The notes: generated by a model from the letters alone, not told the origin. DNA of 64,000 nt from Candidatus Saganbacteria bacterium (GCA_016932255.1 JAFGDE010000019.1:8614-72613); one strand, 5' to 3'. Shown: positions 24,476 through 40,175, counted from the stretch's first letter. Made by a program: numbers and translations.

Positions 24476-24477
24476 GT

Positions 24478-25050: not shown

Positions 25051-25095
25051 ACGCGGGAAACACCGAGATTTCAGGATATCATAAGTAAAAAATAT

Positions 25096-25124
25096 TTGCA
25101 ATAATCAAAGGCAGGTGTTACAAT
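25096..25124 (+). promoter_or_regulatory. Sigma70-like promoter for the 25150 response regulator
   Basis: TTGCAA, 17-nt spacer, TACAAT, followed by a GGAGG SD and a GTG start. Confidence 0.55.
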
Positions 25125-25149
25125 ATTTGCCAAACGGAGGTACAAGCAC

Positions 25150-25572
25150 GTGACAGAAAGCGTTAGGATCGCGGTTATCGACGATGAAGAAGGTGTCAGG
25201 GAATCGTTCAAGATGATCCTGAAGATCAAAGATTATGACGTCGATGTCTTTGAGGACGGCGAGAAAGCCATCGCCAACATCAAGAAGGACAAGTATGACC
25301 TCGCTTTTATTGACTATAAACTTCCCGGCATGGACGGTATCGAGGTCTTAAGGAAGCTCAAGGAGATCGATCCGACCGTTGAGGTCATTATCGTCACAGC
25401 CTACGCCTCGGAATCGTCTCAGGCCAACGCCATCACCCTGGGCGCTTTGGAATACCTGCGCAAACCCTTCCTGATGGAAGAGATCTACGAACTGGTCGAG
25501 CGCGGCCTCCGTAAAAGAAGGACCAGGGGTACGGGCAAGAAGGACTCAGGACCGGTCGGTCCGATCCACTAG
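25150..25572 (+). CDS. Single-domain response regulator
   Basis: 140 aa with IAVIDDEEG...DLAFIDYKLPGMDG...VIIVTA...KPF. Confidence 0.85.
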   Translation: MTESVRIAVIDDEEGVRESFKMILKIKDYDVDVFEDGEKAIANIKKDKYDLAFIDYKLPGMDGIEVLRKLKEIDPTVEVIIVTAYASESSQANAITLGALEYLRKPFLMEEIYELVERGLRKRRTRGTGKKDSGPVGPIH

Positions 25573-26492: not shown

Positions 26493-27603
26493 TGACCTCG
26501 TCTCCTTTATAAAATACCATAGACTGACCAGGAGTTATTGCTAACTGAGATTCTTTAAAAATTAACCGGGCTCTGGGCCTGCCTGCCGGACAGGCAGGTT
26601 CTAGGTGCTGGGTGCTGGGTGCTGGGACCAGCATCGCAGCAGCCTCCGGCGAATTATAGCGTATCTTGGCCATGACCGCCAAATCCCCCTCAGGTATACT
26701 GCCGGAAATATAATTGATCTCTTCAGCCGCAAGCTCCGTGCCCATGACATCCGCCTGGTCGCCGATAACGACCTGGTTCTTCTGCGGGTCGAGCCTGACA
26801 ACGTATTTGGGCCGTCCCTGGTAATGGCCAATGCCTTTGCGCTGGCCCAGCGTATAGAAACAAATGCCTTCGTGCTGGCCGACGACTTTGCCCTGCTGGT
26901 CAACAATATCGCCCGAGCGGACAGCCTCGGGACACTGCAAACGCAAAAAAGCCCCGTAATCATCATGATCGATAAAACAGATCTCCTGGCTCTCAGCTTT
27001 ATCATGCACTGATAGACCGAGCTCTTTGGCTTTCTTCCTAATCTCCTCCTTGGTCAGCTCACCCAGCGGGAATAAGGTCCGGCTCAGCCTGGCCTGATCA
27101 AGAACATAAAGAAAATACGACTGGTCTTTTTTCGGATCCTTGCCCTTTAACAATTTATAAATAACATGACCTTCATTCTTCATTCCGCACCTGCCTGCCG
27201 GCAGGCAGGATTCTTCATTCTGCATTATCCTCGCATAATGCCCCGTAGCTAACTTCTCCGCTCCCAGCTCTTTAGCTTCCTGCCAGAGCAGATCGAACTT
27301 GATCTCGCGGTTGCAGCGGATACAGGGATTGGGCGTTCTGCCCTGTTTATATTCATTGATAAAAACATCCACGACCTTCTGCCTGAACTCATCGCTCAGG
27401 TCAAAGACATGATGCTCGATGCCCAGCTTGTCTGCGACCTTTTTGGCTTCACGCGCTGCCTGGTCTTTGCCCGGCCAAACGATCATGGTCACCCCGATGA
27501 CCTCATGGCCCTGCTCTTTGAGCAAAGCAGCGGCCGTGGACGAATCAACCCCGCCGGACATGGCTAGAGCGACTTTTTGCCTGTTTTTAATGAAATTGCT
27601 CAT
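26458..27603 (-). CDS. mnmA: tRNA 2-thiouridine(34) synthase MnmA carrying two in-frame repeat-derived insertions
   Basis: 381 aa with PP-loop VALAMSGGVDSS, NPCIRCN, ATGHYAR, KDQSYFLY and ITPGQSMVFY. Two extra segments are encoded by repeat DNA (26578-26627 and 27170-27230). Confidence 0.9.
   Translation of the reverse strand: MSNFIKNRQKVALAMSGGVDSSTAAALLKEQGHEVIGVTMIVWPGKDQAAREAKKVADKLGIEHHVFDLSDEFRQKVVDVFINEYKQGRTPNPCIRCNREIKFDLLWQEAKELGAEKLATGHYARIMQNEESCLPAGRCGMKNEGHVIYKLLKGKDPKKDQSYFLYVLDQARLSRTLFPLGELTKEEIRKKAKELGLSVHDKAESQEICFIDHDDYGAFLRLQCPEAVRSGDIVDQQGKVVGQHEGICFYTLGQRKGIGHYQGRPKYVVRLDPQKNQVVIGDQADVMGTELAAEEINYISGSIPEGDLAVMAKIRYNSPEAAAMLVPAPSTQHLEPACPAGRPRARLIFKESQLAITPGQSMVFYKGDEVIGGGLISSKDK
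26578..26627. repeat. Palindrome variant plus 8-bp satellite inside mnmA
   Basis: CCTGCCTGCCGGACAGGCAGG (a 21-bp variant with a central A) followed by TTCTAGGTGCTGGGTGCTGGGTGCTGGGA. It reads in-frame as ...PAPSTQHLEPACPAGRPRA.... Confidence 0.85.
27170..27230. repeat. Type-C arm split by the 20-bp palindrome, inside mnmA
   Basis: CCTTCATTCTTCATTCCGCA + CCTGCCTGCCGGCAGGCAGG (27190-27209) + ATTCTTCATTCTGCATTATCC. It reads in-frame as ...MQNEESCLPAGRCGMKNEGH.... Confidence 0.85.
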
Positions 27604-27666
27604 TATTTTTCTTATATTATAACATTATTTTATAGCATTTATTAACCCCTACTATTCCGCAAGTTT

Positions 27667-27694
27667 TTGACGTTTTTCTACGATATATTAGTAT
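27667..27694 (+). promoter_or_regulatory. Possible promoter for the 27712 gene
   Basis: TTGACG, 16-nt spacer, TAGTAT, then a GGGAGA SD about 9 nt before the ATG at 27712. Confidence 0.45.
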
Positions 27695-27711
27695 TAGGGA
27701 GAACATCAAGA

Positions 27712-29007
27712 ATGTCGATCTCAATGATAGATATACGGTCACTTGGACCGGTAACTCGATTAGCGGCGGCCGGTCACAATCTCCGCCTGGAGCGGCTGCA
27801 AAGAAAGTTGATCGATACCGCTGCCAGATATGCGGCAAAACAGAATAAATCGTCCCTCAGAAGTCGAACTATTGAGTTTCAACTTCACCAGCTGGAACAA
27901 GGGGAATTTTTTGACCACTTCAGCGTTGATCAACGCTTAGTCAACGACGTAATGGACAATGCCCTCCGCCTTTCCGGCAATACCGAGCCGATCATTATCG
28001 ATATAGGTGGCGGAACGTCTTCGACCCATGTGCGCTTTGCGGAAGCGGGCGCGGTCTCGGTCTGCATCGATCCCGCCGTTCCAATCTTGGCAAAGCTCGC
28101 TCAAGTAAGGAACATGGTAAAGATCGCCGAAGGGATCTGGAAAGACCGCACCCTGGAACACTATTTAGTGGCCGCTGACGCAGAAACAGCGGCAGAGGTC
28201 TTGGGCATTGATGAAGGCCATCCCCTGCTCAGGCCCCTGACCGCCAGGAAAAGGGCTTTGCTGCAGGAGTTAACCGGTATCGCCAGGGACTTCCAGCCTG
28301 ACCGGATCGCCGATTCTGAATTCCCGCAAGCCCTCCAGAATATTGCCAACAAAAGAACGGCGGTCGAGAACTTCGAGAACGGTTCGGCCGAATACAGGCA
28401 AGCGGTGATGCGGGAACAAGAAAGAGAAGCCAACCGTTTTAGTTTCGATGACTACAAGAGTTTTTCGGAGACCGAGGTACTCAGGCATCTCCAAGACAGC
28501 CTGCGCTGGGCGCGGGAACGTTTGGCTGGTCTTAAATTAAGCGATCATTTAGAAGAAAACCGGGAACGGATCGAAGACCTGATCGAGAGACTGGTCGAAA
28601 CAGACAATTTGATCGAAGAAAAAAGACTGGAAGCGCTCCGGACCGCGGAAGAACCGCCGGTCGATCTCGTTTTCTGCGGCTACATGCCTCCTAATGTTGA
28701 TTTCACTCCCGCGATAAAAACCCTTCTGGCGAAAGGCATTTTTTATGTGGTAGAGGCCAATGACGGAGCGACCGGGATCCCCTCTTATGAGAACCTGACC
28801 AAAAGCTATTACATATGGAACGGTTTTTATAACTACAGTTTCCTGCCCGGGACGGGTTATGAGGAGATCAGCCGCCAGGATATTTACGGTGAGCCTCGCG
28901 AGAACGCGATCGGCCATACAGTAAGGACTTTTGATCAGTGGATCGTTCAGGCCCGAAGGGACGTGGCTCCCCCTAACACATCAAGCCCAGCTAACAGTTG
29001 GTATTAA
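27712..29007 (+). CDS. Hypothetical protein with split Rossmann/SAM-methyltransferase-like motifs
   Basis: 431 aa from the internal ATG that has an SD. IIIDIGGGTSS and VSVCIDP resemble MTase motifs I/II. A charged helical insert of about 200 aa follows, then DLVFCGYMPP. I recognise no family. Confidence 0.5.
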   Translation: MSISMIDIRSLGPVTRLAAAGHNLRLERLQRKLIDTAARYAAKQNKSSLRSRTIEFQLHQLEQGEFFDHFSVDQRLVNDVMDNALRLSGNTEPIIIDIGGGTSSTHVRFAEAGAVSVCIDPAVPILAKLAQVRNMVKIAEGIWKDRTLEHYLVAADAETAAEVLGIDEGHPLLRPLTARKRALLQELTGIARDFQPDRIADSEFPQALQNIANKRTAVENFENGSAEYRQAVMREQEREANRFSFDDYKSFSETEVLRHLQDSLRWARERLAGLKLSDHLEENRERIEDLIERLVETDNLIEEKRLEALRTAEEPPVDLVFCGYMPPNVDFTPAIKTLLAKGIFYVVEANDGATGIPSYENLTKSYYIWNGFYNYSFLPGTGYEEISRQDIYGEPRENAIGHTVRTFDQWIVQARRDVAPPNTSSPANSWY

Positions 29008-29429
29008 TGCCCAGGTCCCGCCTCATTATTTTTTAGTTTCAAGCCCTCCAGACCTTTACCGGTCGTTTTTTTCAGATAGTCGTCGATCGCGCTCTTTAAG
29101 GCGTCTTCGCCCAGCACCGAACAGTGGACCTTGACCGGCGGCAGGCCGTCCAGGGCCTCAACCACCATCTGGTTGGTCAGCTTAAGCGCCGCGGGAATGG
29201 ACTTGCCTTTGACCATCTCGGTGATCATCGAGCTGGTGGCAATGGCCGCGGCGCAGCCAAAGGTCTTGAACTTGGCGTCAGTGATAACATTATCCTTGAC
29301 CTTGATGTACATCTCCATGATATCGCCGCAGGAAGCATTGCCGATGCGGCCGATGCCGTCAGGGCTATCCATCTCCCCAACATTGCGAGGATTTTTGAAA
29401 TGTTCCATGACCTTATCGCTATAATTCAT
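29004..29429 (-). CDS. iscU: Fe-S cluster scaffold, IscU/NifU N-terminal type
   Basis: 141 aa with NPRNVG...GNASCGD...FKTFGCAAAIA...PVKVHCSVL. Confidence 0.9.
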   Translation of the reverse strand: MNYSDKVMEHFKNPRNVGEMDSPDGIGRIGNASCGDIMEMYIKVKDNVITDAKFKTFGCAAAIATSSMITEMVKGKSIPAALKLTNQMVVEALDGLPPVKVHCSVLGEDALKSAIDDYLKKTTGKGLEGLKLKNNEAGPGH

Positions 29430-29443
29430 AATAATCTACTCCT

Positions 29444-30604
29444 TCATTTCTTATAGAGCGGCGACATTTGCCGCAATTTTTTCACAATCTTGGGAAAGAC
29501 TTCCAGAACGTGATCGATATCCTTGTCCGTATTGGTCCGGCCTAAGGAAAAGCGGATCGAGCCGTGGGCCAGCTCGTGCGTCAGGCCGATCGCCAGCAGG
29601 ACGTGGGACGGATCGAGCGTGCCTGAACTGCAGGCCGAGCCGGTCGAAGCCGCAATGCCTTCCAGATCAAGCTTGAGCAGCATGGCTTCACCCTCAATAT
29701 ATTTGACCGAAACATTGACGTTCTTGGGCAGCCGCTGAACCGGGTGGCCGTTCAGGATAACTTCAGGGATATTGTCCAATATCCCTTTAATCAACCGGTC
29801 GCGCAGCGGCAGCAGATGGGCCACGCGTTCATTGATCTCAGCCTTGGCGATCTCAGCCGCTTTGCCCAGTCCAATGATGCCCGGCACGTTCTCAGTTGAT
29901 GCCCGGCGCCGCTTTTCCTGGCCCCCGCCGCGGATATACGGCTCAAGCCTGGTGCCTTTGCGCACGTAGAGCGCGCCAACGCCTTTGGGCCCGTAGAACT
30001 TATGGGCTGAGAGTGACAGCAGGTCCACGCCCAGTTTATCAACGTCAACTTCGATCTGGCCAACGGTCTGCACCGCGTCAGTATGTAGCAGCACGCCAGC
30101 CTCCTTGGTGATGGTTGAGATCTGCTCAATGGGCTGAATGGTGCCGATCTCATTATTCGCGTGCATGATCGAGACCAGCACGGTCTTATCCGTGATCGCG
30201 GCTTTGACCGCGGCCGGATCGACCAGGCCATACTTGTCCACATCAAGATAAGTGACCTTAAAGCCCTGTTTCTCCAGCCACTGGCATGGTTCCAGCACCG
30301 CGTGATGCTCGATCTTTGACGTGATGATATGATCGCCTTTGCTCTTATTGGCGTAAAGCACGCCGAACAGAGCGGCATTATCGGATTCCGTGCCGCCGGA
30401 AGTGAAAATGATCTCTGCGGGCTGGCAATTGATCAGGCCGGCCAGCCTGGCCCTGGCCGCTTCGACCGCAGCTCTTGCTTCCTGGCCGAACGAATGCAGG
30501 CTCGATGGGTTGCCGTACCTCTCGGAAAAATAAGGCAGCATCTCCTTGAGCACGGAAGGTAAGGTCGGCGTGGTGGCCGCGTTATCCAAATATATGCGCT
30601 TCAT
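29444..30604 (-). CDS. iscS: Cysteine desulfurase (NifS/IscS type)
   Basis: Motifs IYLDNAATTP, SAHKFYGPKG (the PLP lysine) and GSACSSG are present. The start is placed at MKRIYLD, where the ATG overlaps the Rrf2 stop (ATGA at 30601-30604). Confidence 0.9.
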   Translation of the reverse strand: MKRIYLDNAATTPTLPSVLKEMLPYFSERYGNPSSLHSFGQEARAAVEAARARLAGLINCQPAEIIFTSGGTESDNAALFGVLYANKSKGDHIITSKIEHHAVLEPCQWLEKQGFKVTYLDVDKYGLVDPAAVKAAITDKTVLVSIMHANNEIGTIQPIEQISTITKEAGVLLHTDAVQTVGQIEVDVDKLGVDLLSLSAHKFYGPKGVGALYVRKGTRLEPYIRGGGQEKRRRASTENVPGIIGLGKAAEIAKAEINERVAHLLPLRDRLIKGILDNIPEVILNGHPVQRLPKNVNVSVKYIEGEAMLLKLDLEGIAASTGSACSSGTLDPSHVLLAIGLTHELAHGSIRFSLGRTNTDKDIDHVLEVFPKIVKKLRQMSPLYKK

Positions 30605-31011
30605 TTGCCCGCCTCCCGACATAGGTCTTTCAAGGTCGTTGAATCAAAGACCCGGCTGACCTTGGCGCTGAGCTTTTTCCACAGCATCATGGTCGAGCAG
30701 CAGCCGCTGCGTTGGCATTTACCCTCGGCTGAGACGCAGTCAGCCAGCGCCACCGGACCGTCAGCCGCGCGGATGATCATCCCGATACTGATCTTTTCCG
30801 GCTTATCCTTGAGCACATAGCCGCCGGACGGGCCTCTGACCGTTCTCAGCAGGCCTGCCCGCCTCAGTTTGGCCAGCAGCTGCTCCAGATAAGCCAGGGG
30901 CATGTGCTGGGCCGCGGCAATATCAGCCGCTGACACCGGCTGGCCCTGGCTATGGGCCGCCAGGTGGAACATGGCTGAAACAGCGTACCTGCCTTTGGTT
31001 GAAAGCTTCAT
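30601..31011 (-). CDS. Rrf2-family regulator (IscR-like, Cys-rich C-terminal region)
   Basis: MKLSTKGRYAVSAM..., a winged helix (LAYLEQLLAKLRRAGLL...GPSGGY) and the Cys cluster CVSAEGKCQRSGCCS. The start is placed at the ATG rather than the upstream TTG. Confidence 0.85.
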   Translation of the reverse strand: MKLSTKGRYAVSAMFHLAAHSQGQPVSAADIAAAQHMPLAYLEQLLAKLRRAGLLRTVRGPSGGYVLKDKPEKISIGMIIRAADGPVALADCVSAEGKCQRSGCCSTMMLWKKLSAKVSRVFDSTTLKDLCREAGK

Positions 31012-31028
31012 AGAGCTCAATCATATAA

Positions 31029-31051
31029 TAGTTGACTAATTTTGTCAACTA
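31029..31051. promoter_or_regulatory. Palindromic operator overlapping the Rrf2 promoter
   Basis: TAGTTGAC-TAATTTT-GTCAACTA, with perfect 8-bp arms. On the minus strand it contains the TTGACA -35 of a TTGACA-17-TATGAT promoter that ends 8 nt before the Rrf2 ATG. Confidence 0.55.
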
Positions 31052-31067
31052 CTCCAGACTGGCTTGA

Positions 31068-31096
31068 TTGACAAGGCCCGAGGCCGGCTTTACAAT
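31068..31096 (+). promoter_or_regulatory. Consensus-like promoter positioned for a leaderless transcript of the plus-strand paralog operon
   Basis: TTGACA (31068-73), exactly 17 nt, TACAAT (31091-96), then 7 nt to the ATG at 31104. There is no SD. Confidence 0.65.
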
Positions 31097-31103
31097 CAAG
31101 CTA

Positions 31104-31682
31104 ATGAAAAAGCTCTGCCTGACGCTCTGCCTGCTCTGCCTGGCCGTGCCTGCCCTGGCCCGGCCGTTCGATTACAACGTGGCCTACGGCCCGGAATATT
31201 TCTCTTTTTCCAGCTCGAACTCTACAGCCAAAGCCGACCTGGTCACCTGCGGCGTTACCTGCGCGGGCGAGCTGGCTGGTTTTCAGGCCGGCTTTCGCGG
31301 CGGCTTTGGCGAGATCTCGACCACTATGATCAGCTACAACGAGACTTTCCTGCTCTACATGTTCGACAAGAGCCCTGAGTCGTTTTTGGGCCTGGGGCCG
31401 GCTTATTTTAACTACGAGAATACCCTGGACAAGGCCGCTGACGTCAAGTTCAGGAACGCGGAGCTCAACGCCAAACTGAAATGGGCCAGGATCATGGCGC
31501 CGATCTGGGGCTTTTACGCTGAACTGACCGGGCCGCAAACAGTCAGCTGGGAACTGGGCGCTCTGGCTTATTTTGATGAACGTTTGGGAGATTTTAATGT
31601 CCGGCTGGGCTATCGCGAGCTCAGGTTCAGCAATGACGCCACAATGCGCGGCCCGTATATCGCTTCCAGCGTGTATTTTTAA
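31104..31682 (+). CDS. Small outer-membrane beta-barrel-like protein (first gene of the plus operon)
   Basis: 192 aa. Signal peptide MKKLCLTLCLLCLAVPALA, alternating aromatic/Gly-rich strands, and a C-terminal SSVYF. The start was moved off the track's upstream ATG because that codon lies inside the promoter. Confidence 0.55.
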   Translation: MKKLCLTLCLLCLAVPALARPFDYNVAYGPEYFSFSSSNSTAKADLVTCGVTCAGELAGFQAGFRGGFGEISTTMISYNETFLLYMFDKSPESFLGLGPAYFNYENTLDKAADVKFRNAELNAKLKWARIMAPIWGFYAELTGPQTVSWELGALAYFDERLGDFNVRLGYRELRFSNDATMRGPYIASSVYF

Positions 31683-31994
31683 ATGAAAAGAACTATCGCC
31701 TTACTATTGATATTGAACTTTGGTCTGCTCCCGGCCCTAGCCGAGACCCTGATCTCGCAGGAAAGCTGGAGCAGGAACACGGAATATCAGGGCAGCGCTG
31801 ACGCGCCGATGGTCTTTTCCCCACCTGCCAGGCTGACCCTGTCTGACAGGACAGAAAAACTGGTCGTTCTGCCGCAGGACCTGGAGATCAAGGACGAGAT
31901 CCAGGAGTTCCGGCTCTTTCGCAACCGTTACGTGATCTTTGGCACATATTTGTCCCTGGCGCTGTATTACAACTGGCTGACGAGGCACAGATGA
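31683..31994 (+). CDS. Paralog array member P1 (signal peptide, short ectodomain, conserved C-terminal motif, TM anchor)
   Basis: 103 aa. Signal MKRTIALLLILNFGLLPALA. C-terminus LEIKDEIQEFRLFRNRYVIFGTYLSLALYY. The start abuts the upstream stop (TAAATG). Confidence 0.7.
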   Translation: MKRTIALLLILNFGLLPALAETLISQESWSRNTEYQGSADAPMVFSPPARLTLSDRTEKLVVLPQDLEIKDEIQEFRLFRNRYVIFGTYLSLALYYNWLTRHR

Positions 31995-32395
31995 TAAGAA
32001 TTATTGCGCTATTATTGATCATGATACTTGGCTCGCAGGCCGGCGCTATCGAGCTGGCCCGCGACACGCTCTGGTTTGGCCGGGTCAATCTGACCCAGGA
32101 AGTGGTCGTGCCTGAGAACGTGACCTTGACCATCGCGCCAGGCACAAAGATAACGACCAACGGTAATAAAATAATCGCTTACGGCAAAGTCGCCATTCAG
32201 GCGGACGAAACCCAGCCGGTGGACCTGAAATACTTCCCGCAAACAGAGACTTCGACCGTTGAGGTCGTCAGGCTCAAGCCCTATGACGTGGACACGGACA
32301 TCCTCAAAGAGGAGTTCAATGTCTTCAAAGTGCAGTATGCTATACTATGGTCACTGTTATTCGCGAGCACTTTTGTCATGCTGGAGGCCAGATGA
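31991..32395 (+). CDS. Paralog array member P2
   Basis: 134 aa with a signal peptide, the beta-helix-cap-like segment WFGRVNLTQEVVVPENVTLTIAPGTKI, and C-terminus LKPYDVDTDILKEEFNVFKVQYAILWSLLFASTFV. Overlaps P1 by ATGA. Confidence 0.7.
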   Translation: MIRIIALLLIMILGSQAGAIELARDTLWFGRVNLTQEVVVPENVTLTIAPGTKITTNGNKIIAYGKVAIQADETQPVDLKYFPQTETSTVEVVRLKPYDVDTDILKEEFNVFKVQYAILWSLLFASTFVMLEAR

Positions 32396-32877
32396 TCAGG
32401 AACATCGCCATAGCTCTGATATTCGCCCTGCTGATCGAGATCCCGGCTGCGGCCGCGCCTGAAGCCAGGATACTTAACGACCTGGTGACCATCTGGTCCG
32501 GCCGGGTCGAGCTAAGCAACGATGTGATCGTGCCTGATGGCCATATCCTGATCATTGAGCCGGGCACACAGATCAACTGCGTTTATTCCGACAGCAACAG
32601 CCAGATCTCGCCCAAAGAGTGGCGCATCATTGTCAAAGGCGACTTGATATGCGGCGGACAACCTGAGCGGGCCGTGGTCATCGATACCATGCCCTACGGC
32701 CTGCACACTGTCAGACTGCCGGTATCCGACAGCGTGGAAAAGATCACTATCGCGCCCATGAAGGTCGATACAGAGAAGATCCGCAGCGAGTTCGGGGTGT
32801 TCCGGCTCCAGTACCTGGCGCTCTGGCTGACCCTGTTCGGCGGCGTGTTCTATGCCATTAGATCGAGGAAAGACTGA
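32392..32877 (+). CDS. Paralog array member P3
   Basis: 161 aa from the ATG with a GGAGG SD (ATGA overlap with P2). Contains WSGRVELSNDVIVPDGHILIIEPGTQI and C-terminus APMKVDTEKIRSEFGVFRLQYLALWLTLFGGVFY. Confidence 0.7.
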   Translation: MIRNIAIALIFALLIEIPAAAAPEARILNDLVTIWSGRVELSNDVIVPDGHILIIEPGTQINCVYSDSNSQISPKEWRIIVKGDLICGGQPERAVVIDTMPYGLHTVRLPVSDSVEKITIAPMKVDTEKIRSEFGVFRLQYLALWLTLFGGVFYAIRSRKD

Positions 32878-33342
32878 ATGAGAAAAGCCCTGATCTACAG
32901 CTTGATGACCTGTTTCCTGACCGTGACCTGCCTGGGGCCGGCCGCGGCAGAGGATAAATGGTATAAAGGCAGCGTGGTCAAGGAAGACCTGACCATCGAA
33001 AGCTCGGACTTCAAACATCTGCTGCCCGGAGCGACCTTAAGGCTTGAGCCGGGCAGCAAACTCAGCATCAAAGGCCAGCTGGTCGCGGTCGGCAGCGAAC
33101 AGGACCCGGTCGTTATCTCGATCAGCAACCCGGTCAGCAAAGACAGGATAACCACGCTGAACGGCACTACCGTCGTTACCACCAACACGGGTTTAAAAGA
33201 GATCGAGATCAAACCTTACAGCGTTGAAACAGAGGAGATTATCTCAGAGCTCGAAGCTTTCCGCAAACAGTACGCTTTTGTCTGGGTGGTGCTGATGGGC
33301 CTGCAGATCTACCTGGTCTTTAACCGCGCGACCTACTGGTGA
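32878..33342 (+). CDS. Paralog array member P4
   Basis: 154 aa with a signal peptide and C-terminus IKPYSVETEEIISELEAFRKQYAFVWVVLMGLQIYLVF. Confidence 0.7.
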   Translation: MRKALIYSLMTCFLTVTCLGPAAAEDKWYKGSVVKEDLTIESSDFKHLLPGATLRLEPGSKLSIKGQLVAVGSEQDPVVISISNPVSKDRITTLNGTTVVTTNTGLKEIEIKPYSVETEEIISELEAFRKQYAFVWVVLMGLQIYLVFNRATYW

Positions 33343-33831
33343 TCAGTAATACAGTTCGACCGCGGTCCTGAAGAACGCCCCGCCGCCTGAGACCGTGTTC
33401 GGTGCAGAGGTCAATAATTTCTGAGGCATTACCCCGGCCAGCATGATCAGGTCGACCCAGTTAAGCCAGCACATCTTATAGCCCAGATGATAACTGAGCT
33501 CCTTGACCCCGCCCCCGCTGGTACCCTTGATATAGGAACGGTTGTAGCCCAGCCCGGCGATCGCGCAGTCGCGGCCCAGAGGATAATTATATTCCAGACC
33601 GAGGTAGTTGATCGCTACGTCAACATTGCCGCTGTCGTTCAAGAGAAAGGTCGCGCCCATCTGCATAAAGACATCCTGCCAGACAATGAAGTCCATGTTC
33701 GCGCCGAACTCAGTGTTGCTGGTATCGGCCACCGAATCCGTGCCCAGGTTCAGCCGCAGGCCGAACTCATGGTCAGCCAGGGCCAGCGCCGGCAGCAGCA
33801 ACATCATGATAATTAATGTTAACTTTTTCAT
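33343..33831 (-). CDS. Small outer-membrane beta-barrel-like protein (last gene of the minus operon)
   Basis: 162 aa. Signal MKKLTLIIMMLLLPALALA, Gly/aromatic-rich alternating strands, and an aromatic C-terminus VELYY. Its stop abuts the P4 stop (TGATCA). Confidence 0.5.
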   Translation of the reverse strand: MKKLTLIIMMLLLPALALADHEFGLRLNLGTDSVADTSNTEFGANMDFIVWQDVFMQMGATFLLNDSGNVDVAINYLGLEYNYPLGRDCAIAGLGYNRSYIKGTSGGGVKELSYHLGYKMCWLNWVDLIMLAGVMPQKLLTSAPNTVSGGGAFFRTAVELYY

Positions 33832-34175
33832 TTGCTTGAGGCGTAGGCTATCCCGGCCAGCACGAACAGCGCGGGATAGAAGAACGCTCCTTTAAAGATA
33901 TAATCATTGATCTCATCCTCAAAACCCTTTTCCATATAAGTTCTCGGCTCATACTCAACAACCTCAACGCCTTCGGGCAGCAGGACATCGGTCTCCTGCG
34001 TGACCTCAATGACCTTAAGCCCGACCTTTGTCAGGTCGACCGGCGCCTCATCAAGCGTTAGCACAGCCGGATGGTCTACTGAACCGGACAATTCCAGCTT
34101 GTCCGTGATCAACTGCTCGGCCAGCAGCGGCTGGGCCAGTAAAAGCAGAGCGATCAGACTTGCCGCGAATCTCAT
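33828..34175 (-). CDS. Paralog array member P6
   Basis: 115 aa from MRFAASLIALLLLAQPLLA (ATGA overlaps at both ends). The C-terminal motif is degenerate: EYEPRTYMEKGFEDEINDYIFKGAFFYPALFVLAGIAY. Confidence 0.65.
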   Translation of the reverse strand: MRFAASLIALLLLAQPLLAEQLITDKLELSGSVDHPAVLTLDEAPVDLTKVGLKVIEVTQETDVLLPEGVEVVEYEPRTYMEKGFEDEINDYIFKGAFFYPALFVLAGIAYASSK

Positions 34176-34684
34176 CAGATATTCCTCGCAAAGACCCACA
34201 TGCCGTAAATGACCGCCCAAACAATGAAATAATTATATTTGAAGCTGCGGAACTCCTGTTTCATTGACTCAGTGTCGATCTGATATGGCGAGAAGCGGAT
34301 CACCCTGACCTCATCGCCCAGCTCGACCAGTTTTTTCGCTTTCAACCCGGAGACCGAGACCAGCCTGATCGGCTTGTCCGCACTGGCTCGCGTTTCGATC
34401 GTGCCAAAGGCGATCAGCTCGCACTGGTCCTTTCTTTTGCCGCTTTCCAGCAGGTCGCGCTCGTCAAAGATCAGCTCAGTGCCAGGCTCGATGATCAGTT
34501 TTCTGCCCAGAGGCACGGTCACGTCGCCGATGAGAAAGACCCGGCCCTGCCAAACCTCGTCCTCGGTCAGCTCGCCGACCTTGATCGCGGTATTTTCATC
34601 GATCAGGTCGGTCATGGCGAGAGCCAGGACCAGCTGCTGGCAGAGGAACAATGATATTAAAATAGCGGCAACGGTCTTTTTCAT
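34175..34684 (-). CDS. Paralog array member P7
   Basis: 169 aa from MKKTVAAILISLFL. Contains WQGRVFLIGDVTVPLGRKLIIEPGTELIF and C-terminus FSPYQIDTESMKQEFRSFKYNYFIVWAVIYGMWVF. Confidence 0.7.
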   Translation of the reverse strand: MKKTVAAILISLFLCQQLVLALAMTDLIDENTAIKVGELTEDEVWQGRVFLIGDVTVPLGRKLIIEPGTELIFDERDLLESGKRKDQCELIAFGTIETRASADKPIRLVSVSGLKAKKLVELGDEVRVIRFSPYQIDTESMKQEFRSFKYNYFIVWAVIYGMWVFARNI

Positions 34685-34893
34685 TTCAATAGCACCACGG
34701 CGAACGACAGCGCGTAAAGCATAGCATAGGTCAGCCGGTAATCCTTCCATTCCTGCGCAAAATCCTTGGTCGAGACCGGTTTCGCTCTAATGGTCAGGAC
34801 CTCGCCGCTAACCTCTTCGGTCAGGACCACGGTCGAGATCTGGAGCAGCAGGACCAGGCTCAGGCACAGGCTCAGGACCTTCTTACCAAACAT
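34681..34893 (-). CDS. Paralog array member P8 (minimal form)
   Basis: 70 aa with a signal peptide and AKPVSTKDFAQEWKDYRLTYAMLYALSFAVVLL. Confidence 0.6.
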   Translation of the reverse strand: MFGKKVLSLCLSLVLLLQISTVVLTEEVSGEVLTIRAKPVSTKDFAQEWKDYRLTYAMLYALSFAVVLLK

Positions 34894-35116
34894 ACGGCAT
34901 GATAAAGGCCGTCAAGTAAAAGAAGATCCAGAACGTGGCGTAGCGCGCCCTGAACTCCGTGAACTCGGCCCTTTCCTCTTCAAATTCATATTCCGCGGGC
35001 ACCACAACAACTGTCTTGACCCCGGGATCAAGCTTGAGCGTGACCGCCTCAAGCGTGGCCCAGGAAGTATTGACCAGCAGCGTCAGCAGGACAAAGATGA
35101 CCGTGATCTGCTTCAT
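34883..35116 (-). CDS. Paralog array member P9 (minimal form)
   Basis: 77 aa from MKQITVIFVLLTLLV, with VPAEYEFEEERAEFTEFRARYATFWIFFYLTAFIM. ATGA overlap with P10. Confidence 0.6.
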   Translation of the reverse strand: MKQITVIFVLLTLLVNTSWATLEAVTLKLDPGVKTVVVVPAEYEFEEERAEFTEFRARYATFWIFFYLTAFIMPYVW

Positions 35117-35361
35117 TTGAATCCCAGATAAGCGCCGTGCAGCCAGGCGCCGTAGCAATACAGCCGTTTGTACTCTTTGAGCGCGGACATGATATTGGAA
35201 GTATCGACCGCGTACGGCTCGATCTCCGTGACATTATCGCGGCTGATCGAGATATAGCGCGCAGCCTCAGGACTGCCGGACAGCACCAGGTTGGTAGCCA
35301 GCTCGGCTGAGATCAGGGAGATCGCCATGATGATCTGCAGCGCTTTAGCTAAGGACTTCAT
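35113..35361 (-). CDS. Paralog array member P10 (minimal form)
   Basis: 82 aa with IEPYAVDTSNIMSALKEYKRLYCYGAWLHGAYLGF. Its start overlaps the larE 3' end by 17 nt. Confidence 0.6.
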   Translation of the reverse strand: MKSLAKALQIIMAISLISAELATNLVLSGSPEAARYISISRDNVTEIEPYAVDTSNIMSALKEYKRLYCYGAWLHGAYLGFK

Positions 35362-36139
35362 TCAAGCTCCCTGTGCGGTAGCCTTTGAGATCGAGCGTGA
35401 CATAAGTATAGCCGAGGCGCTCGAACTTTTCCGCTATCTCGTCCATCCGCTCCATGACCTGGGGCACAGCCGCTTTATTGACCTCGATCCTGGCAATGGC
35501 ACCGTGATGCCTGACGCGCAGCTGGCCAAAGCCCAGCGATTTCAGAAAATCTTCGCCCGCGCCGACCAGCTTCAGCACCTCTCTGGTCAAGGGAGTGCTG
35601 TAAGGCACGCGCGAGGCCAGACAGGCTGCCGCGGGCTTGTCCCAGGTGGGCAGGCCGAGTTCTTTTGACGCGTCCCTGATATCAGGCTTGCGCCAGGCCA
35701 GTTCCTGCAGGGGGCTGATGATCCCGAGCTCGTTCTTGGCCCGGTTGCCCGGCCGGAAATCAGAGCGGTCATCAAAGTTGGAGCCGTCAAGCACCTGGGC
35801 AAAGCCATGGAGAGCCGCGATCTTCTTAAGTTGTGAGAAATTAGCTTTTTTGCAAACGTAGCAGCGCTCCGGCGTATTAGCCAGAAAATCAGCATCGGAC
35901 ATCAGCTGGCTGTTGACAGCGATACGCCTGATCCCCTGTGAAGCGCAGAAGTCGATCGTGAACTGTTCTTCGCTCTGCGCGAAAAAAGGAGCTTCAATGT
36001 TCGCGGCAACAGCCTTATCTCCCAATTCTTCATGAGCGACCTTGAGCAAAAAGGTGCTGTCAACGCCGCCGGAAAAGGCGATCAAGGCCGAACCGAGCTC
36101 GCGCAGTCTGTGACGCAACTTGTCCAGTTTATCAGCCAT
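35345..36139 (-). CDS. larE: PP-loop ATP-dependent sulfur transferase, LarE family
   Basis: 264 aa with PP-loop AFSGGVDSTFL, CYVCK and the conserved AAACLASRVPY cysteine segment. Confidence 0.8.
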   Translation of the reverse strand: MADKLDKLRHRLRELGSALIAFSGGVDSTFLLKVAHEELGDKAVAANIEAPFFAQSEEQFTIDFCASQGIRRIAVNSQLMSDADFLANTPERCYVCKKANFSQLKKIAALHGFAQVLDGSNFDDRSDFRPGNRAKNELGIISPLQELAWRKPDIRDASKELGLPTWDKPAAACLASRVPYSTPLTREVLKLVGAGEDFLKSLGFGQLRVRHHGAIARIEVNKAAVPQVMERMDEIAEKFERLGYTYVTLDLKGYRTGSLNEVLS

Positions 36140-36204
36140 AGGATAATGATACTAAATGGGTGAAGTTGTAGCAATAGATTGAGGGATTGAGGAATGGATC
36201 GAGA

Positions 36205-36252
36205 GGAACCGCGGCGTTCAGCCTGCCTGCCGGCAGGCAGGCCGCAGGTTCC
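36205..36252. repeat. 48-bp composite palindromic element, copy 1
   Basis: GGAACCGCGGCGTTCAG-CCTGCCTGCCGGCAGGCAGG-CCGCAGGTTCC. Identical to the copy at 36815-36862. Confidence 0.9.
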
Positions 36253-36262
36253 GAATCCCGGC

Positions 36263-36724
36263 TTAGACTGATTCCAACACGTGATACTTGATCTGGCGGC
36301 GGCCGAAATCAAGCGCGTCGCTGTATCTAAGCATCCAGATATCGATGCGGTCGGTATAGCGCCGGTTCATCCGGTCCTCGACCGTGAAGACCTGGTCGCC
36401 AAAGCCTTCAATGACGATCTTAGTGCCGATGGGCAGATGGTTGGCCGCGACCACGCCAGGCCGGCAGCGGGTTCCGGAAGCCGTGATCCAGGGGGTTGAG
36501 TCGCACTGGCCAACCATAGAGTTATAAGCCGTGGCAGTGGAAACATCAGAATAAGCAATACGGTAATGGCCGGCAATAAGCAGCTGTCTGGCTGAGGACG
36601 GAATAACCACCAGGCCGATCAAGAGCAAGCCCAGGCAGAAAGTCCTAGCCCAGAAAGGCAGTTTTTCAGCCAGTTTACTCCAAAATATGCAGAATTTAAG
36701 TTTATAATAGAGTCTGCCGCGCAT
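36263..36724 (-). CDS. 3D-domain (MltA/RlpA-like) cell-wall-binding protein
   Basis: 153 aa with an N-terminal TM/signal anchor. TATAYNSMVGQCDSTPWITASGT...GTKIVIEGFGDQVFTVEDRM...IDIWM matches the 3D-domain pattern. Confidence 0.75.
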   Translation of the reverse strand: MRGRLYYKLKFCIFWSKLAEKLPFWARTFCLGLLLIGLVVIPSSARQLLIAGHYRIAYSDVSTATAYNSMVGQCDSTPWITASGTRCRPGVVAANHLPIGTKIVIEGFGDQVFTVEDRMNRRYTDRIDIWMLRYSDALDFGRRQIKYHVLESV

Positions 36725-36775
36725 AGGCGATCCCCTCTACTATATTTATCGTATTGGGAAAGGAAAAAGTTGCAT

Positions 36776-36862
36776 GGGTTCGGGTTCTAGGTTCTGGGTT
36801 CTAGGATAAAAAATGGAACCGCGGCGTTCAGCCTGCCTGCCGGCAGGCAGGCCGCAGGTTCC
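36776..36862. repeat. GGGTTCT-type satellite plus 48-bp composite element, copy 2
   Basis: GGGTTCGGGTTCTAGGTTCTGGGTTCTAGG (36776-36805), then an exact second copy of the 48-bp element (36815-36862). Confidence 0.9.
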
Positions 36863-36868
36863 CTCGCG

Positions 36869-37477
36869 TTAAATATTCGGGAAGACCTGTCTGGCTGGTT
36901 TTTGTACGGCCTGGTAAACAGCCGCCGCGGCCAGTAGTTTGATGATATCTCCCGGGATGAACGGCAGCACGCCGAGCAGGAAAGCGCTCTTAAGCGACAT
37001 GCCGGAGATCAAAGCCAGGTGAACAGCGCCGCAAGCCAGCAGAGCCGCGCCGCCGATGAACATGGCGCCAACGATCTTGATATAAGGCGCTTCGCTGTCA
37101 TTGCCCAGCAGCCAGCCGATCAGAAAAGCAGCCAGCATAAAGCCGATGAGATAGCCGCCGGTGGGCCCCATCAGCCTGGCAAAACCGTACAGTCCACCAG
37201 TAAAGACCGGCAGGCCAAATATACCGACCAGCAGATAACCCGACTGTGACAGCAGGCCCAGCCTTCTGCCCAGTAAAGCGCCGGCCAGCAGGACAAAAAA
37301 GGTCTGCAGGGTCAAAGGCACGGGCGTAAAAGGCAGGGGGACGCGGATATAGGCGCCGGCCACGGTCAAAGCGATAAAACTGACCACGCCGATAACCCCG
37401 GCCACCGTCTTATTGACAACATATTCTTTCTTCAGGGCTTTTACTACTACTTGCGGCATTAAGCTCACCTCAAACAA
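36869..37477 (-). CDS. bioY: Biotin transporter BioY
   Basis: 202 aa with RVPLPFTPVPLTLQTFFVLLAGALLG...GPTGGYLIGF. Confidence 0.85.
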   Translation of the reverse strand: MFEVSLMPQVVVKALKKEYVVNKTVAGVIGVVSFIALTVAGAYIRVPLPFTPVPLTLQTFFVLLAGALLGRRLGLLSQSGYLLVGIFGLPVFTGGLYGFARLMGPTGGYLIGFMLAAFLIGWLLGNDSEAPYIKIVGAMFIGGAALLACGAVHLALISGMSLKSAFLLGVLPFIPGDIIKLLAAAAVYQAVQKPARQVFPNI

Positions 37478-37483
37478 ATTATA

Positions 37484-37894
37484 TCAGAAATGGACCTCGA
37501 TTGCACGCGGCGGGCACGGCCTGATGCAGAGCTCGCAGGCAATGCACTTCTCCGGGTCAAAGGCCACTTCCATAGTCTGCCTGTCCTTGATATAGAGCGC
37601 TTCGGTCGGACAGATCGAAACACAGGCGCCGCACTGGGTGCATTTATCCCAGTTGACCTTGATCTCCTTGCTCAGGAACTCGACATTAACGCCTTCGTCC
37701 TTTAAATGCTTGATCGCCTTGTCGATCTCGGCCTTGTCGCCGTCCAGTTCCAGCACCATATGGCCTTCCTGGTCAGGCGTGATGCTGGCCTTGAGGATAT
37801 TAAAGCTCAGATCGAACTCCTTGATCAGCTTGTACACGATCGGTTTATCTATCTTATCTTTAGGAAAGGTCAGGACGATCTTTTTGGCTGACAT
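37484..37894 (-). CDS. NIL-domain / 2x[4Fe-4S] ferredoxin protein (homocysteine biosynthesis partner)
   Basis: 136 aa from MSAKKIV (GGAGGG SD). NIL-like N-terminal half, then CTQCGACVSICP and CIACELCIRPCP. The track's longer N-terminus reads through repeat DNA. Confidence 0.8.
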   Translation of the reverse strand: MSAKKIVLTFPKDKIDKPIVYKLIKEFDLSFNILKASITPDQEGHMVLELDGDKAEIDKAIKHLKDEGVNVEFLSKEIKVNWDKCTQCGACVSICPTEALYIKDRQTMEVAFDPEKCIACELCIRPCPPRAIEVHF

Positions 37895-37920
37895 GTTATT
37901 TGCCCTCCTTTTATTTAGTA

Positions 37921-38003
37921 GCCTGCGGCCTGCCTGCCGGCAGGCAGGCTGAACGCCGCGGCTCCTTTTTTGGGAAACCGCGAAGTTCATTCGCAGGTTT
38001 CCC
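37921..38003. repeat. Filled composite element followed by an empty type-B hairpin
   Basis: GCCTGCGG-CCTGCCTGCCGGCAGGCAGG-CTGAACGCCGCGGCTCC (37921-65), then GGGAAACCGCGAAGTTCATTCGCAGGTTTCCC (37972-38003). Confidence 0.9.
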
Positions 38004-38010
38004 ATAAATA

Positions 38011-39240
38011 TTATTTGCCCTCCTTCACAGGTCTTTCCTTGAGCGGCTTGAACCTGGGCGCGCTCTCCCCGGCCGGCAGGTCGGCGACCTTTTCGGTCAG
38101 CAGGAACTCGCCCTGCTTGATCTGTGTTTTAAGGTCCTCGGCAATTTGCAGCGCTTTCTTATAGCTGGACAGGCCTGAGGTCGGCACCTGTTTGCCCTTT
38201 AATTCGATACTGCCGGACTTGAGCTGGGCATAGTTGACCTCAGCCAGCACGTCAGCTTTGGCATTGGGATAAGCGTCGCTGTAATCGACGACAGCGGCAA
38301 CGATATCCTCGTCCTTGACCGCGGTGTACTTGACGATCTCTTCGTTAAGGATCGGGATCGGGATGCCAATGCCGACAGCCATTGACGGGCCGTAGCCGAT
38401 CAGGCTGACGCCTTTAAGCCAATCCGGGCCCATCTGCTTCAGGTCGCCGATCAGGGCCAGCGTGCCCGCGCCCCTCTTGGGCACGCCGCTCTTGCCGCGC
38501 GGCGCGTGCGGGTTATGCTGGGTGCCCTGCCAGACGATATAGCCGATGCCGCCGCCCAGCCAGATGCGCGTGCCAATGCCCAGGGTCTTATAATACGGGT
38601 CATTGAGCAGCGGCGACAATTGGCCGGCAGAGCAGTAATTGGCATTGCCCAGCTTGGGCTTGAGCGTGCCCAGATAAGTGTAGATCGTCTTATCCGACAG
38701 GTTGACCGCCACATTATAGTTCTGGTAAGCGTTGCGCGAGTTGAACAGCACGGCTTCGTTCAAGTCCTTGATGTTGATCCAGGTGTCCAGGTGCTTGCGC
38801 GGATAGCAGTCGGTGCCGTAGGCCTCGACCTGCAATCTAACATCCTTGCCCGCGACCAGATCATTGATCACGTGGCCGCCGCCATAGGCGAACTCGCCCG
38901 GATGGATCTTATTGCGCGGGTCGTCATCAGGCATGGCCGTAGCACCCAGGTAAAGATCGACCGCTGCCCAGCCGGTATAAGCCGGCACGTTATTGAGCGT
39001 CGCGGTGCCACCGCCGGCCTTGAGCTTGGGCCTGGTATGGCCGAAATTAAGATAAGCGCCGGAGGAGCACATCGGCCCGAAAGTGCCGGTGGTCACGACG
39101 TCGACCTCTTTAGCCGCCTGGGCCGCGCCTTTCTGTTCAACGATCCCGATGATCTCTTCCGCGGTCACTACGACCGCCTTGCCTTTTTTGATCTTTTCGT
39201 TTATCTCTTGTATCGTCTTTGCCATTTTGTTGTCCTCCAT
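38011..39240 (-). CDS. COG1900/DUF39-family homocysteine biosynthesis protein
   Basis: 409 aa. Its N-terminus (KTIQEINEKIKKGKAVVVTAEE) and overall pattern match the family that pairs with NIL-ferredoxin in methanogens and anaerobic bacteria. Confidence 0.75.
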   Translation of the reverse strand: MEDNKMAKTIQEINEKIKKGKAVVVTAEEIIGIVEQKGAAQAAKEVDVVTTGTFGPMCSSGAYLNFGHTRPKLKAGGGTATLNNVPAYTGWAAVDLYLGATAMPDDDPRNKIHPGEFAYGGGHVINDLVAGKDVRLQVEAYGTDCYPRKHLDTWINIKDLNEAVLFNSRNAYQNYNVAVNLSDKTIYTYLGTLKPKLGNANYCSAGQLSPLLNDPYYKTLGIGTRIWLGGGIGYIVWQGTQHNPHAPRGKSGVPKRGAGTLALIGDLKQMGPDWLKGVSLIGYGPSMAVGIGIPIPILNEEIVKYTAVKDEDIVAAVVDYSDAYPNAKADVLAEVNYAQLKSGSIELKGKQVPTSGLSSYKKALQIAEDLKTQIKQGEFLLTEKVADLPAGESAPRFKPLKERPVKEGK

Positions 39241-40175
39241 TATTCCTTAAATAAAGCTGTGCTGAGATAGCGCTCGCCTGTGTCAGGCAAAAGCACCACG
39301 ATCATCTTGCCTTTGCTCTTGTTCTGAGCGGCCAGCTTAACTGCCGCGGCCACTGCCGCGCCCGAGGAGATGCCCGCGAGGATACCCTCGTCCCTGGCCA
39401 GTCTCCTGGCCAAGACAAAAGCGTCCTCATCACTGACCTGGACGATCTCGTCAATGATCTTGCGGTTCAAAACGTCCGGCACAAAGCCAGCGCCAATGCC
39501 CTGGATCAGGTGCGGCCCGGCCGGATCTCCCGAGAGCACCGCGGAAGCTGACGGCTCGACTGCCACGATCTTGATGCTTTTCTTTTTCTTCTTCAGGGCT
39601 TCGCCAACACCGGTAAGCGTGCCACCGGTGCCGACCCCGGCCACGAAGATATCGACTTTACCTTCCGTATCCTGCCAGATCTCTTCAGCCGTGGTCTGGC
39701 GATGGGCTTCAGGATTGGCCGGGTTCTTGAACTGCTGGGGCATGAAAGAATTTCTGGTCGTTTTGAGCAGTTCTTCCGCCTTATCGATGGCGCCCTGCAT
39801 GCCTTTAGCGCCTTCGGTCAGCACGATCTCAGCGCCAAAAGCTTTTAACAGGTTGCGCCGCTCAAGGCTCATGGTCTCGGGCATTGTCAGAATTAATTTA
39901 TAGCCGCGCGCCGCACAGACAAAGGCCAGCCCGATGCCGGTATTGCCCGAGGTCGGTTCGATTATAGTCGCGCCTTCACAGATCCTGCCCTCAGCCTCAG
40001 CCGCGTCGATCATGGCCAGGCCGATCCGGTCTTTGACACTGCCGCAGGGATTGAACGACTCCAGCTTGGCAATGACCAAAGCGCCGGCGCCGTCGGTCAC
40101 CTTACTCAGCCTGACCAAGGGCGTCTTGCCGACCAGTTGAGTGATATCTTTGGCTATGCCTGTCATTTGCCTCAC
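39240..40175 (-). CDS. cysK: Cysteine synthase A (O-acetylserine sulfhydrylase)
   Basis: 311 aa with [13 protein letters not shown] (PLP lysine), [10 protein letters not shown] and [10 protein letters not shown]. Confidence 0.9.

Follow-up and report, generated by a model that had tools for sequence, protein, structure and literature searches.

The question raised by a 64,000-nt stretch of DNA from Candidatus Saganbacteria (hereafter the window, meaning the whole stretch, whose six-frame translation gives 821 open reading frames, ORFs) is what is encoded by eleven small genes packed between an Rrf2/nifS operon and larE. An earlier note on this DNA had described them as two convergent operons of nine paralogous membrane-anchored proteins (P1-P4 and P6-P10) and two barrel-like proteins (B1 and B2), together forming one unassigned envelope system. 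Margulisiibacteriota and Saganbacteria are uncultured sister lineages of Cyanobacteria, and their envelopes are known from gene inventories alone. Comparison with related loci indicates that the region is two diverged, tail-to-tail copies of a self-contained, previously undescribed envelope gene cassette, with B1-P1-P2-P3-P4 on the plus strand and P10-P9-P8-P7-P6-B2 on the minus strand (Table 1).

All eleven ORFs were found where they had been placed, and every junction listed between them (abutting, ATGA or TGATG) is correct; a further overlap of 11 nt, between P9 and P8, was absent from that listing and recurs in orthologous loci. The plus and minus sets meet stop-to-stop at 33342/33343 with zero intergenic bases and with no terminator-like site at the meeting point, and the minus set does overlap the 3' end of larE, the ATG of P10 sitting 17 nt within that gene. 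The start/stop overlaps are conserved across orthologous loci, and Shine-Dalgarno motifs (GGAG-like) occur at about half of the internal genes, the remainder relying on overlap. Relative to their orthologues at two related loci (L010 and L007), the cluster proteins are 30-69% identical and retain their lengths, order and overlaps, while pN/pS lies at 0.28-0.56 for all eleven genes with synonymous sites at or near saturation, from which it follows that the eleven genes are protein-coding and under purifying selection.

The nine P proteins form one family, as had been proposed, their paralogy being beyond chance by both phmmer and profile hhalign. When each protein was searched by phmmer against the 821 window ORFs, matches were confined to cluster members, with E-values of ~1e-15 among P2, P3 and P7, ~1e-7 for P4 and 1e-3 to 1e-5 for P1, P9 and P10, and no match for P6 or P8 in this single-sequence search. 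Alignment by hhalign of orthogroup profiles built from several genomes, with signal peptides removed, connected all nine P groups, at probabilities of 96-99.9% for the long members and with P6 as the weakest link (individual pairings in Table 1). P1, P6, P8 and P9, earlier said to carry degenerate versions of the conserved C-terminal block, are thus related to the others, but P6 and P8 can be recognised at the profile level only. B1 and B2 are unrelated to the P family by hhalign. Homology between B1 and B2 was also considered and rejected, since hhalign aligned their signal peptides only and the probability fell from 34% to 0.3% once these were removed. The hhalign pairings (P1 with P9, P2/P3 with P7b/P7, P4 with P6/P10, where P7b is a long paralogue described below) make P1-P2-P3-P4 collinear with P9-P8/P7b-P7-P6, the differences being an extra P10 and the other barrel at the opposite end, so that the two sets in the window are ancient, diverged versions of a single cassette design.

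The two sets also occur apart, and the view of them as one split system was not borne out: they are independent cassettes, each found alone in other genomes. In the window, L007 and L010 both are present, flanked by the Rrf2/nifS operon and larE; B1-P1-P2-P3-P4 stands alone at this same site in L008 and L009; and P10-P9-P8-P7-P6-B2 stands alone between uvrB and dapA in L002, L003 and L004. Overall, the order B1-P1-P2-P3-P4 was seen in 5 contexts and the order P10-P9-P7b/P8-P7-P6-B2 in at least 8 independent contexts. The canonical form of the latter is P10-P9-P7b-P7-P6-B2, in which a full-length P7b (156-164 aa) occupies the position of the 70-aa P8 of the window (L013, L014, L015, L022 and L023), and which recurs in five settings (L015; L014; L022; L023; L013 together with L021). 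Judged by this gene order, the minus cassette of the window is a derived form of the canonical six-gene module, whose genes sum to less than 3 kb. The link to larE that had been suggested is one of position and not of function, because the module lies in other neighbourhoods elsewhere, beside uvrB, enolase, ffh or arsR-type genes. A functional tie to larE or sulfur metabolism, suggested by the Margulisiibacteriota neighbourhood, was set aside on the same grounds.

The family is rare, most clusters having 1-3 members. Searched with a profile, a set of 5.8 billion proteins gave only 25 matches, of which the exact ones carry locus tags JW782_06075-06115 on a 76-kb contig of a Candidatus Saganbacteria metagenome-assembled genome (MAG) and the other organism-named ones come from Margulisiibacteriota MAGs; the same search gave 11 homologues of B1 and 3 of B2, with the organism-labelled ones in Saganbacteria, Margulisbacteria or Margulisiibacteriota MAGs. 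Profile scanning with a narrow alignment recovered only 2 genome loci and 4 metagenome loci, so that the distribution counts are minimal estimates. Around the canonical module, the synteny is of Margulisiibacteriota type in L015, while in L022 the module adjoins enolase, DivIC and PASTA kinase genes. In L023 it follows ffh, a cytochrome-c-assembly-family gene and a CNNM/CorC gene, an ffh-ypjD-corB order which we take, from the gene order of E. coli, to be typical of Gammaproteobacteria, the host taxonomy not being independently confirmed. L013 is a MAG labelled Ectothiorhodospiraceae (GC content 36-41%, label not independently confirmed) and L021 a 212-kb metagenome contig. In these gammaproteobacterial-type contexts the cassette lies at 8805-11350 (L013), 6853-9374 (L021) and 5799-8360 (L023), and orthogroup hidden Markov models place every cassette gene of L022 and L023 in its expected group, with E-values of 1e-9 to 1e-78. 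The presence of the cassette in gammaproteobacterial-type contexts, whose host taxonomy is not independently confirmed, would imply its horizontal transfer between phyla. A plasmid or phage origin was considered and rejected, there being no phage match and the sole plasmid match being to a generic beta-helix protein.

The earlier statement that no described family matches these proteins holds across Pfam, NCBIfam, PADLOC, PHROG and PDB sequence searches. Each library was scanned with 10 of the 11 cassette proteins (P10 lying outside the Pfam and PADLOC scans, P9 outside the NCBIfam and PHROG scans) and gave nothing above noise, scanning the individual members of the P7 and B2 families against Pfam gave nothing useful, and PDB sequence profiles gave no meaningful match for the P, B1 or B2 families. 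Three weak matches were discarded: ExtJ on P8 (E 0.009), which covers the signal peptide only and was judged chance, and PD-T4-6 on P6 (PADLOC, E 0.0012) and TrpF on P10, likewise judged chance. With zero PHROG matches and a sole PADLOC match attributable to chance, the cassette does not resemble an anti-phage defence or phage module.

The AlphaFold2 (AF2) model of B1, built from 11 homologues (predicted local distance difference test, pLDDT, 85.9; predicted TM-score, pTM, 0.77), shows a signal helix followed by ten long antiparallel strands, and its Foldseek matches in the PDB are solely outer-membrane barrels (E 1e-5 to 1e-3, probability 1.0), namely NspA, OpcA, OmpA, Pla/OmpT and the autotransporter barrels EstA and NalP, at TM-scores of 0.4-0.6. 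The barrel-like character claimed for B1 is therefore supported by AF2 and Foldseek as an outer-membrane-type fold, as predicted by the model. As in small outer-membrane barrels (NspA, OpcA, the OmpA N-domain, OmpX/Ail, OmpT/Pla), a signal peptide, a closed antiparallel barrel and a C-terminal aromatic residue are present; unlike them, B1 has no sequence-level membership and has an invariant ARPFxYN at its mature N-terminus, its C-terminal SSVYF being invariant as well. B2 represents a separate family, with a signal peptide, ~8 segments of alternating hydrophobicity, 12.6% Gly and a YY/YF end, features that would fit an 8-stranded barrel; one of 9 B2 family members matched OMP_b-brl weakly (E 0.044), and a PDB sequence-profile search with the B2 family gave no match.

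For the longer P proteins, a W.GRV...IEPGT segment had been read as beta-helix-cap-like, and this reading proved correct, the segment being where a right-handed beta-helix begins. Exhaustive searching of 1.84 billion cluster representatives with HMMER gave 3869 matches; the large proteins among the best 150 aligned only to profile positions ~3-88, often several times per protein, and ~22 small proteins (126-197 aa) aligned end to end. Pfam Beta_helix scored above cutoff in six of the seven large matches scanned and NosD also in three of the seven, and in the large matches checked these domains begin directly after the aligned segment, which is the basis for accepting the cap reading. The P proteins thus resemble Beta_helix (PF13229) and NosD (PF05048) proteins in that positions 5-80 of the long-P profile match the segment preceding or beginning those domains in the seven large surface-protein matches, but differ from them in stopping at about two rungs and in carrying a unique C-terminal block. 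None of 23 P-family members exceeded the Pfam threshold for Beta_helix or NosD, and the P proteins have neither the gathering score nor the several stacked rungs of that family. Their ectodomains, of 20-110 aa and of beta structure, form a truncation series: P7, P7b, P2, P3 and the degenerate P4 have the cap and two rungs, P1, P6 and P10 a 'G....P.h.h' rung only, and P8 and P9 no rung. In the AF2 model of mature P7 (12 sequences), eight short strands make up roughly two rungs of beta-helix, and residues 90-111, modelled at low confidence, link them to one long C-terminal helix (116-145). As a separate observation, the ~75-aa unit of cap plus first rung occurs in up to 15 copies in single giant proteins of 2,000-7,600 aa, and may be an unrecognised repeat unit besides being an N-terminal beta-helix cap.

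The conserved C-terminal block (C-block) of the P proteins begins with a short beta-strand, followed by P-Y-x-h-[DE]-T-[ED] and then E-F-x-x-F-[KR]-x-x-Y-x-x-x-W; in structural terms, the strand is succeeded by a putative helix cap, an amphipathic helix, a short hydrophobic helix rich in aromatics and, last, basic residues. In the AF2 model of P7 the predicted helix starts at D-T-E, a motif that can be read as a helix capping box, and the cap, amphipathic and hydrophobic parts form one continuous helix. The alignment spaces the conserved L, F, F, Y and W at 4-3-4-4, so that these residues share one helical face, which runs into the hydrophobic segment. Within orthogroups the C-block is more conserved than the ectodomain (23-48% identical across orthologues) and each paralogue retains its own tail sequence; in P1 and P2 the last 22 residues are 86-88% identical versus 47-48% for the ectodomain (86% for the P1 transmembrane segment plus tail). 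This paralogue-specific conservation argues for specific helix-helix packing and against a generic anchor. The C-block is confined to small cassette proteins and was unseen on the large proteins among the best 150 matches, and for that reason is not regarded as a general sorting tag.

The common plan attributed to all nine P proteins stood as regards signal-peptide-like N-termini, a variable ectodomain and a conserved C-block, but a C-terminal transmembrane helix in every member did not, since the tail segment of P10 is not transmembrane-like and several others are marginal. By inspection, the N-termini have a basic n-region, a hydrophobic core of 12-20 residues and mostly AXA-type sites, at which signal peptidase would be expected to cleave. 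The C-terminal hydrophobic cores are only ~14-16 residues long and rich in Y, W and F, Kyte-Doolittle 17-mer peaks reach 1.5-2.0 in only six of the nine, and the tails mostly end basic, with P4 and P9 ending YW/VW. Anchoring of these tails in the inner membrane is plausible but not secure, because the cores are short and aromatic and score poorly for insertion, and such marginal segments are also compatible with tails that associate with the outer membrane or a barrel. Helices this marginal are typically ones that depend on partner helices. Stoichiometric assembly and a trans-envelope role, as suggested earlier, are conjectural. P10 orthologues have a His, usually His-Gly, in the middle of the weakly hydrophobic tail segment (window 35113-35361; L002 3409-3660; L005 9318-9572; L007 2499-2750; L013 8805-9149; L022 402-680; L023 5799-6122), L015 being the exception; as a buried polar or ligand-binding residue this would be unusual for a plain anchor.

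The likeliest explanation for this architecture is a heteromeric envelope complex. Each cassette would supply one small barrel (ten strands in B1, probably eight in B2) and four or five paralogous Sec-exported P proteins, with one copy per paralogue at a ratio fixed by translational coupling; the tail helices would join the paralogues into a membrane-embedded bundle, on the periplasmic side the partial beta-helix heads would together form one composite head that binds glycan or wall, and the cassette's own barrel would act as the outer-membrane partner, making the whole a structural or tethering complex. Hetero-oligomerisation is argued for by the fixed gene set and order across phyla with conserved translational coupling, by the paralogue-specific tails with their single aromatic face, and by the partial beta-helix heads, which would be unstable alone. 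As a whole the model is tentative and is given somewhat less than an even chance. Beta-helix domains commonly bind polysaccharide, and for this reason a wall- or glycan-contacting structural role is the best guess by analogy, although function is much less certain than the assembly model. Several points weigh against the complex: the P7 model is only moderate (pLDDT 73.6) and has no significant match in Foldseek (none at E<=0.001), probably because the long helix and small head defeat the search; a two-rung beta-helix falls far short of spanning the periplasm; P8 and several orthologues of P10 have poor signal-peptidase sites and might retain the N-terminal segment uncleaved; the crude Hessa sums of the best 19-mers are 2.7-7 for most P tails and 10-13 for P10, compared with 0-4 for genuine BioY helices of the window, so that the P10 segment in particular does not look like a membrane helix; and the neighbouring genes, which differ between lineages, give no clue to function.

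In having four to five small paralogues of graded size and fixed order, with one long, partly hydrophobic helix as the most conserved part, the P proteins resemble type II secretion pseudopilins and type IV minor pilins. The topology is however mirrored, the P helix being C-terminal, the N-termini by inspection resemble normal Sec signal peptides and have no G|FxxxE prepilin motif, and no ATPase, platform protein, secretin or prepilin peptidase was found in any cassette or in the flanks examined, so that assignment to the pilins or pseudopilins does not hold.

The strongest of the alternatives, although considered unlikely, is that the tails escape Sec stop-transfer and dock on or in the cassette barrel or the outer membrane, making a unit of helix-anchored proteins and barrel analogous to Omp-alpha/Omp-beta of Thermotoga or to a split autotransporter. 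This would account for tail cores that are short, aromatic-rich and poor in insertion score, for the YW/VW ends of P4 and P9, and for the co-encoding of exactly one barrel per cassette. To our knowledge there is no general route for alpha-helix insertion into bacterial outer membranes, which counts against it, as do the basic residues that follow the hydrophobic segment in most paralogues and would fit cytoplasmic retention; moreover, five helices are too many for a 10-stranded barrel. The likeness to Omp-alpha extends to a C-terminal hydrophobic helix, Omp-alpha reportedly having a C-terminal hydrophobic anchor. Omp-alpha/Omp-beta, a functional analogue of OmpM/SlpA in diderm Terrabacteria, likewise pairs a secreted protein with a beta-barrel of the same operon (PMC10160955), and OmpM-type tethers are a feature of Saganbacteria and related lineages, which are diderm (bioRxiv 10.1101/2021.05.31.446380). 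However, the cassette has five small paralogues in place of a single rod of ~50-nm coiled coil, its barrels are much smaller, no sequence relationship between the two systems was found with Pfam or NCBIfam, and neither an SLH domain (PF00395; none in the 10 cassette proteins scanned against Pfam) nor a long coiled coil, the hallmarks of OmpM/SlpA and Omp-alpha tethers, was found. Autotransporter barrels (EstA, NalP) are among the Foldseek matches of B1, a similarity that is generic to small barrels, and the succession of signal peptide, right-handed beta-helix, alpha-helix and outer-membrane barrel is that of the type Va proteins. Unlike these single polypeptides with a helical linker and a C-terminal 12-stranded PF03797 barrel, the cassette encodes its barrel of 10 strands as a separate gene, has four or five 'passengers' per barrel, a beta-helix of about two rungs and a helix that is hydrophobic and aromatic and not of the pore-filling type, and PF03797 was not matched in the Pfam scan.

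A reading without any complex, in which the P proteins act independently as variable periplasmic binding modules or as small channel-forming membrane peptides co-expressed with a porin-like barrel, is improbable. The fast divergence of the ectodomains would be expected of it, as would the shrinkage of P7b to the 70-aa P8 in the Saganbacteria lineage with the cassette kept. However, across phyla the cassette strictly keeps its number of genes, their order and their overlaps, the tails are conserved paralogue by paralogue, and no cassette with expanded or shuffled paralogues was seen. Known C-terminal sorting signals consist of a short motif directly before a transmembrane helix and basic tail, occur on many unrelated proteins and are served by a sortase-type enzyme. 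That the C-block is such a signal (PEP-CTERM, LPXTG or GlyGly-CTERM type), cleaved by an unlinked enzyme with the ectodomains attached or released, is very improbable. In its favour are the overall layout (a signal peptide, then the motif, the hydrophobic helix and the basic tail), which is like that of known signals, and a gene for an Rce1-like/CPBP intramembrane protease 6 kb off at 41666-42487 (plus strand), the one nearby candidate for a processing enzyme. Against it, neither this gene in the other loci nor a sortase-like gene in any context examined keeps a place beside the cassette, none of the NCBIfam sorting models matches, the features of PEP-CTERM, LPXTG, GlyGly-CTERM and PGF-CTERM signals are not present, the conserved motif lies ~17 residues ahead of the hydrophobic segment and not adjacent to it, the block was seen only on clustered small proteins (the large ones among the best 150 matches align at profile positions 3-88 only), and each paralogue conserves its own tail.

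The consensus promoter claimed for the plus operon is present, with TTGACA (31068) and TACAAT (31096) separated by 17 nt and followed after 7 nt by the B1 ATG, and matches the consensus at 11 of 12 positions. It diverges from the IscR-like Rrf2/nifS operon, which includes an FAD-oxidoreductase, and on that side the likely ATG of the Rrf2 gene follows TTGACA-17-TATGAT at a distance of 8 nt. A palindrome between them overlaps the -35 box of the Rrf2 promoter and is the probable operator of the Rrf2 (IscR-like) regulator. This intergenic region is strongly conserved in 6 loci, far above the flanking coding DNA, whose synonymous sites are saturated (window 31005-31110; L010 3190-3290; L008 2095-2192; L009 1120-1196; L007 6905-7000; L015 6780-6888). 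Its conserved elements are the palindrome TAGTTGACTAATTTTGTCAACTA, almost invariant in the 6 loci, and TTGACA-17-TATAGA/TACAAT-7-ATG, and each region has two divergent TTGACA-17-TAnnAT promoters 7-8 nt ahead of an ATG, an arrangement that suggests leaderless transcripts and a shared operator. In L015 the promoter is kept although the first gene is P10-like and not B1, which indicates that the promoter slot is fixed and the cassette variant exchanged. A weaker promoter-like site upstream of larE (36174-36146, minus strand, 9 of 12 matches) ends 6 nt before the ATG at 36139, and larE and the minus cassette probably form one transcript. The geometry of the plus-cassette, Rrf2 and larE promoters is of leaderless type in all three and may be common in this genome; regulatory coupling of the cassette to the Rrf2 operon is possible.

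Table 1. Features of the cassette region, in window coordinates
Feature	Position	Strand	Description
Palindrome TAGTTGACTAA/TTTGTCAACTA	31029-31051		inverted repeat, 91% complementarity; divergent promoter region
Sigma-70-type promoter	31068-31096	+	ends 7 nt before B1 ATG; leaderless-type geometry
B1	31104-31682	+	secreted, predicted 10-stranded outer-membrane-type beta-barrel; ALA|RPF cleavage site; C-terminal SSVYF
P1	31683-31994	+	short paralogue, counterpart of P9 (hhalign P1-P9 98.3%)
P2	31991-32395	+	long paralogue: beta-helix cap, two rungs and C-block (phmmer 1e-16 to P3/P7; hhalign 99.9% to P7)
P3	32392-32877	+	long paralogue (phmmer, hhalign)
P4	32878-33342	+	long paralogue, cap degenerate; nearest to P10 and P6; top match of profile search
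B2	33343-33831	-	small secreted protein ending YY/YF; putative 8-stranded barrel; last gene of every six-gene module
P6	33828-34175	-	most divergent paralogue (hhalign 92.5% to P4); module position conserved
P7	34175-34684	-	long paralogue; family member with widest spread; AF2 model pLDDT 73.6
P8	34681-34893	-	70-aa remnant of second long paralogue P7b (hhalign 97.6%)
P9	34883-35116	-	short paralogue (phmmer, hhalign, orthogroup hidden Markov models)
P10	35113-35361	-	short paralogue (hhalign 96.4% to P4); weakly hydrophobic tail segment with His
larE	35345-36139	-	upstream neighbour of P10, outside module; TIGR00268 308 bits (cutoff 150)

In the wider neighbourhood, genes for sulfur trafficking and PP-loop proteins follow one another over positions 23102-40166 (TilS, NadA, MnmA, NifU, NifS, IscR-like Rrf2, LarE, BioY, NIL-ferredoxin, HcyBio and a PALP enzyme). 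The envelope cassette interrupts this series midway, and the series recurs in several Margulisiibacteriota loci. Within it, a 431-aa ORF without a Pfam match lies between nifU and mnmA (27712-29007, plus strand), with unannotated genes at a similar position in L007 (12244-13191) and L015 (1848-2819). A 153-aa protein at 36263-36724 (minus strand), hydrophobic in a segment at its N-terminus, matches nothing in Pfam or NCBIfam and by eye may resemble a 3D/RlpA-like wall-binding domain; genes of similar size (151-164 aa) without a Pfam match lie beside larE in L005, L007 and L015, compared by size and position only. Further along the window, GC content dips sharply to 0.346 at 46001-48000, versus ~0.54 elsewhere, over two minus-strand ORFs (46279-47388, 369 aa; 47500-48567, 355 aa), a stretch that may be a foreign island or a glycan-synthesis-type insertion.

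Taken as a gene set, the cassette is rated as lying outside every described kind of system, with only generic folds recognisable in it (an outer-membrane barrel and a beta-helix start), and its status as a system rests on conservation and anatomy. It is possible, although doubtful, that it represents a new class of envelope machine, in which five helix-tailed paralogues with complementary beta-helix fragments co-assemble and are coupled to a dedicated small barrel, encoded by a six-gene cassette that moves between Margulisiibacteriota and Gammaproteobacteria and whose variants are replaced at a promoter slot beside the IscR-like/nifS operon. The module is small enough for whole synthesis and expression in E. 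coli. Should the proteins instead be lineage-specific minor membrane proteins, the value of the finding would be limited to the annotation of about a dozen new protein families. If the complex exists, it would be a natural case of a beta-helix fold split over paralogous subunits, and the few systems that organise the envelope (Lpp, Pal, OmpA and OmpM) would gain a new member, present in two phyla or more.

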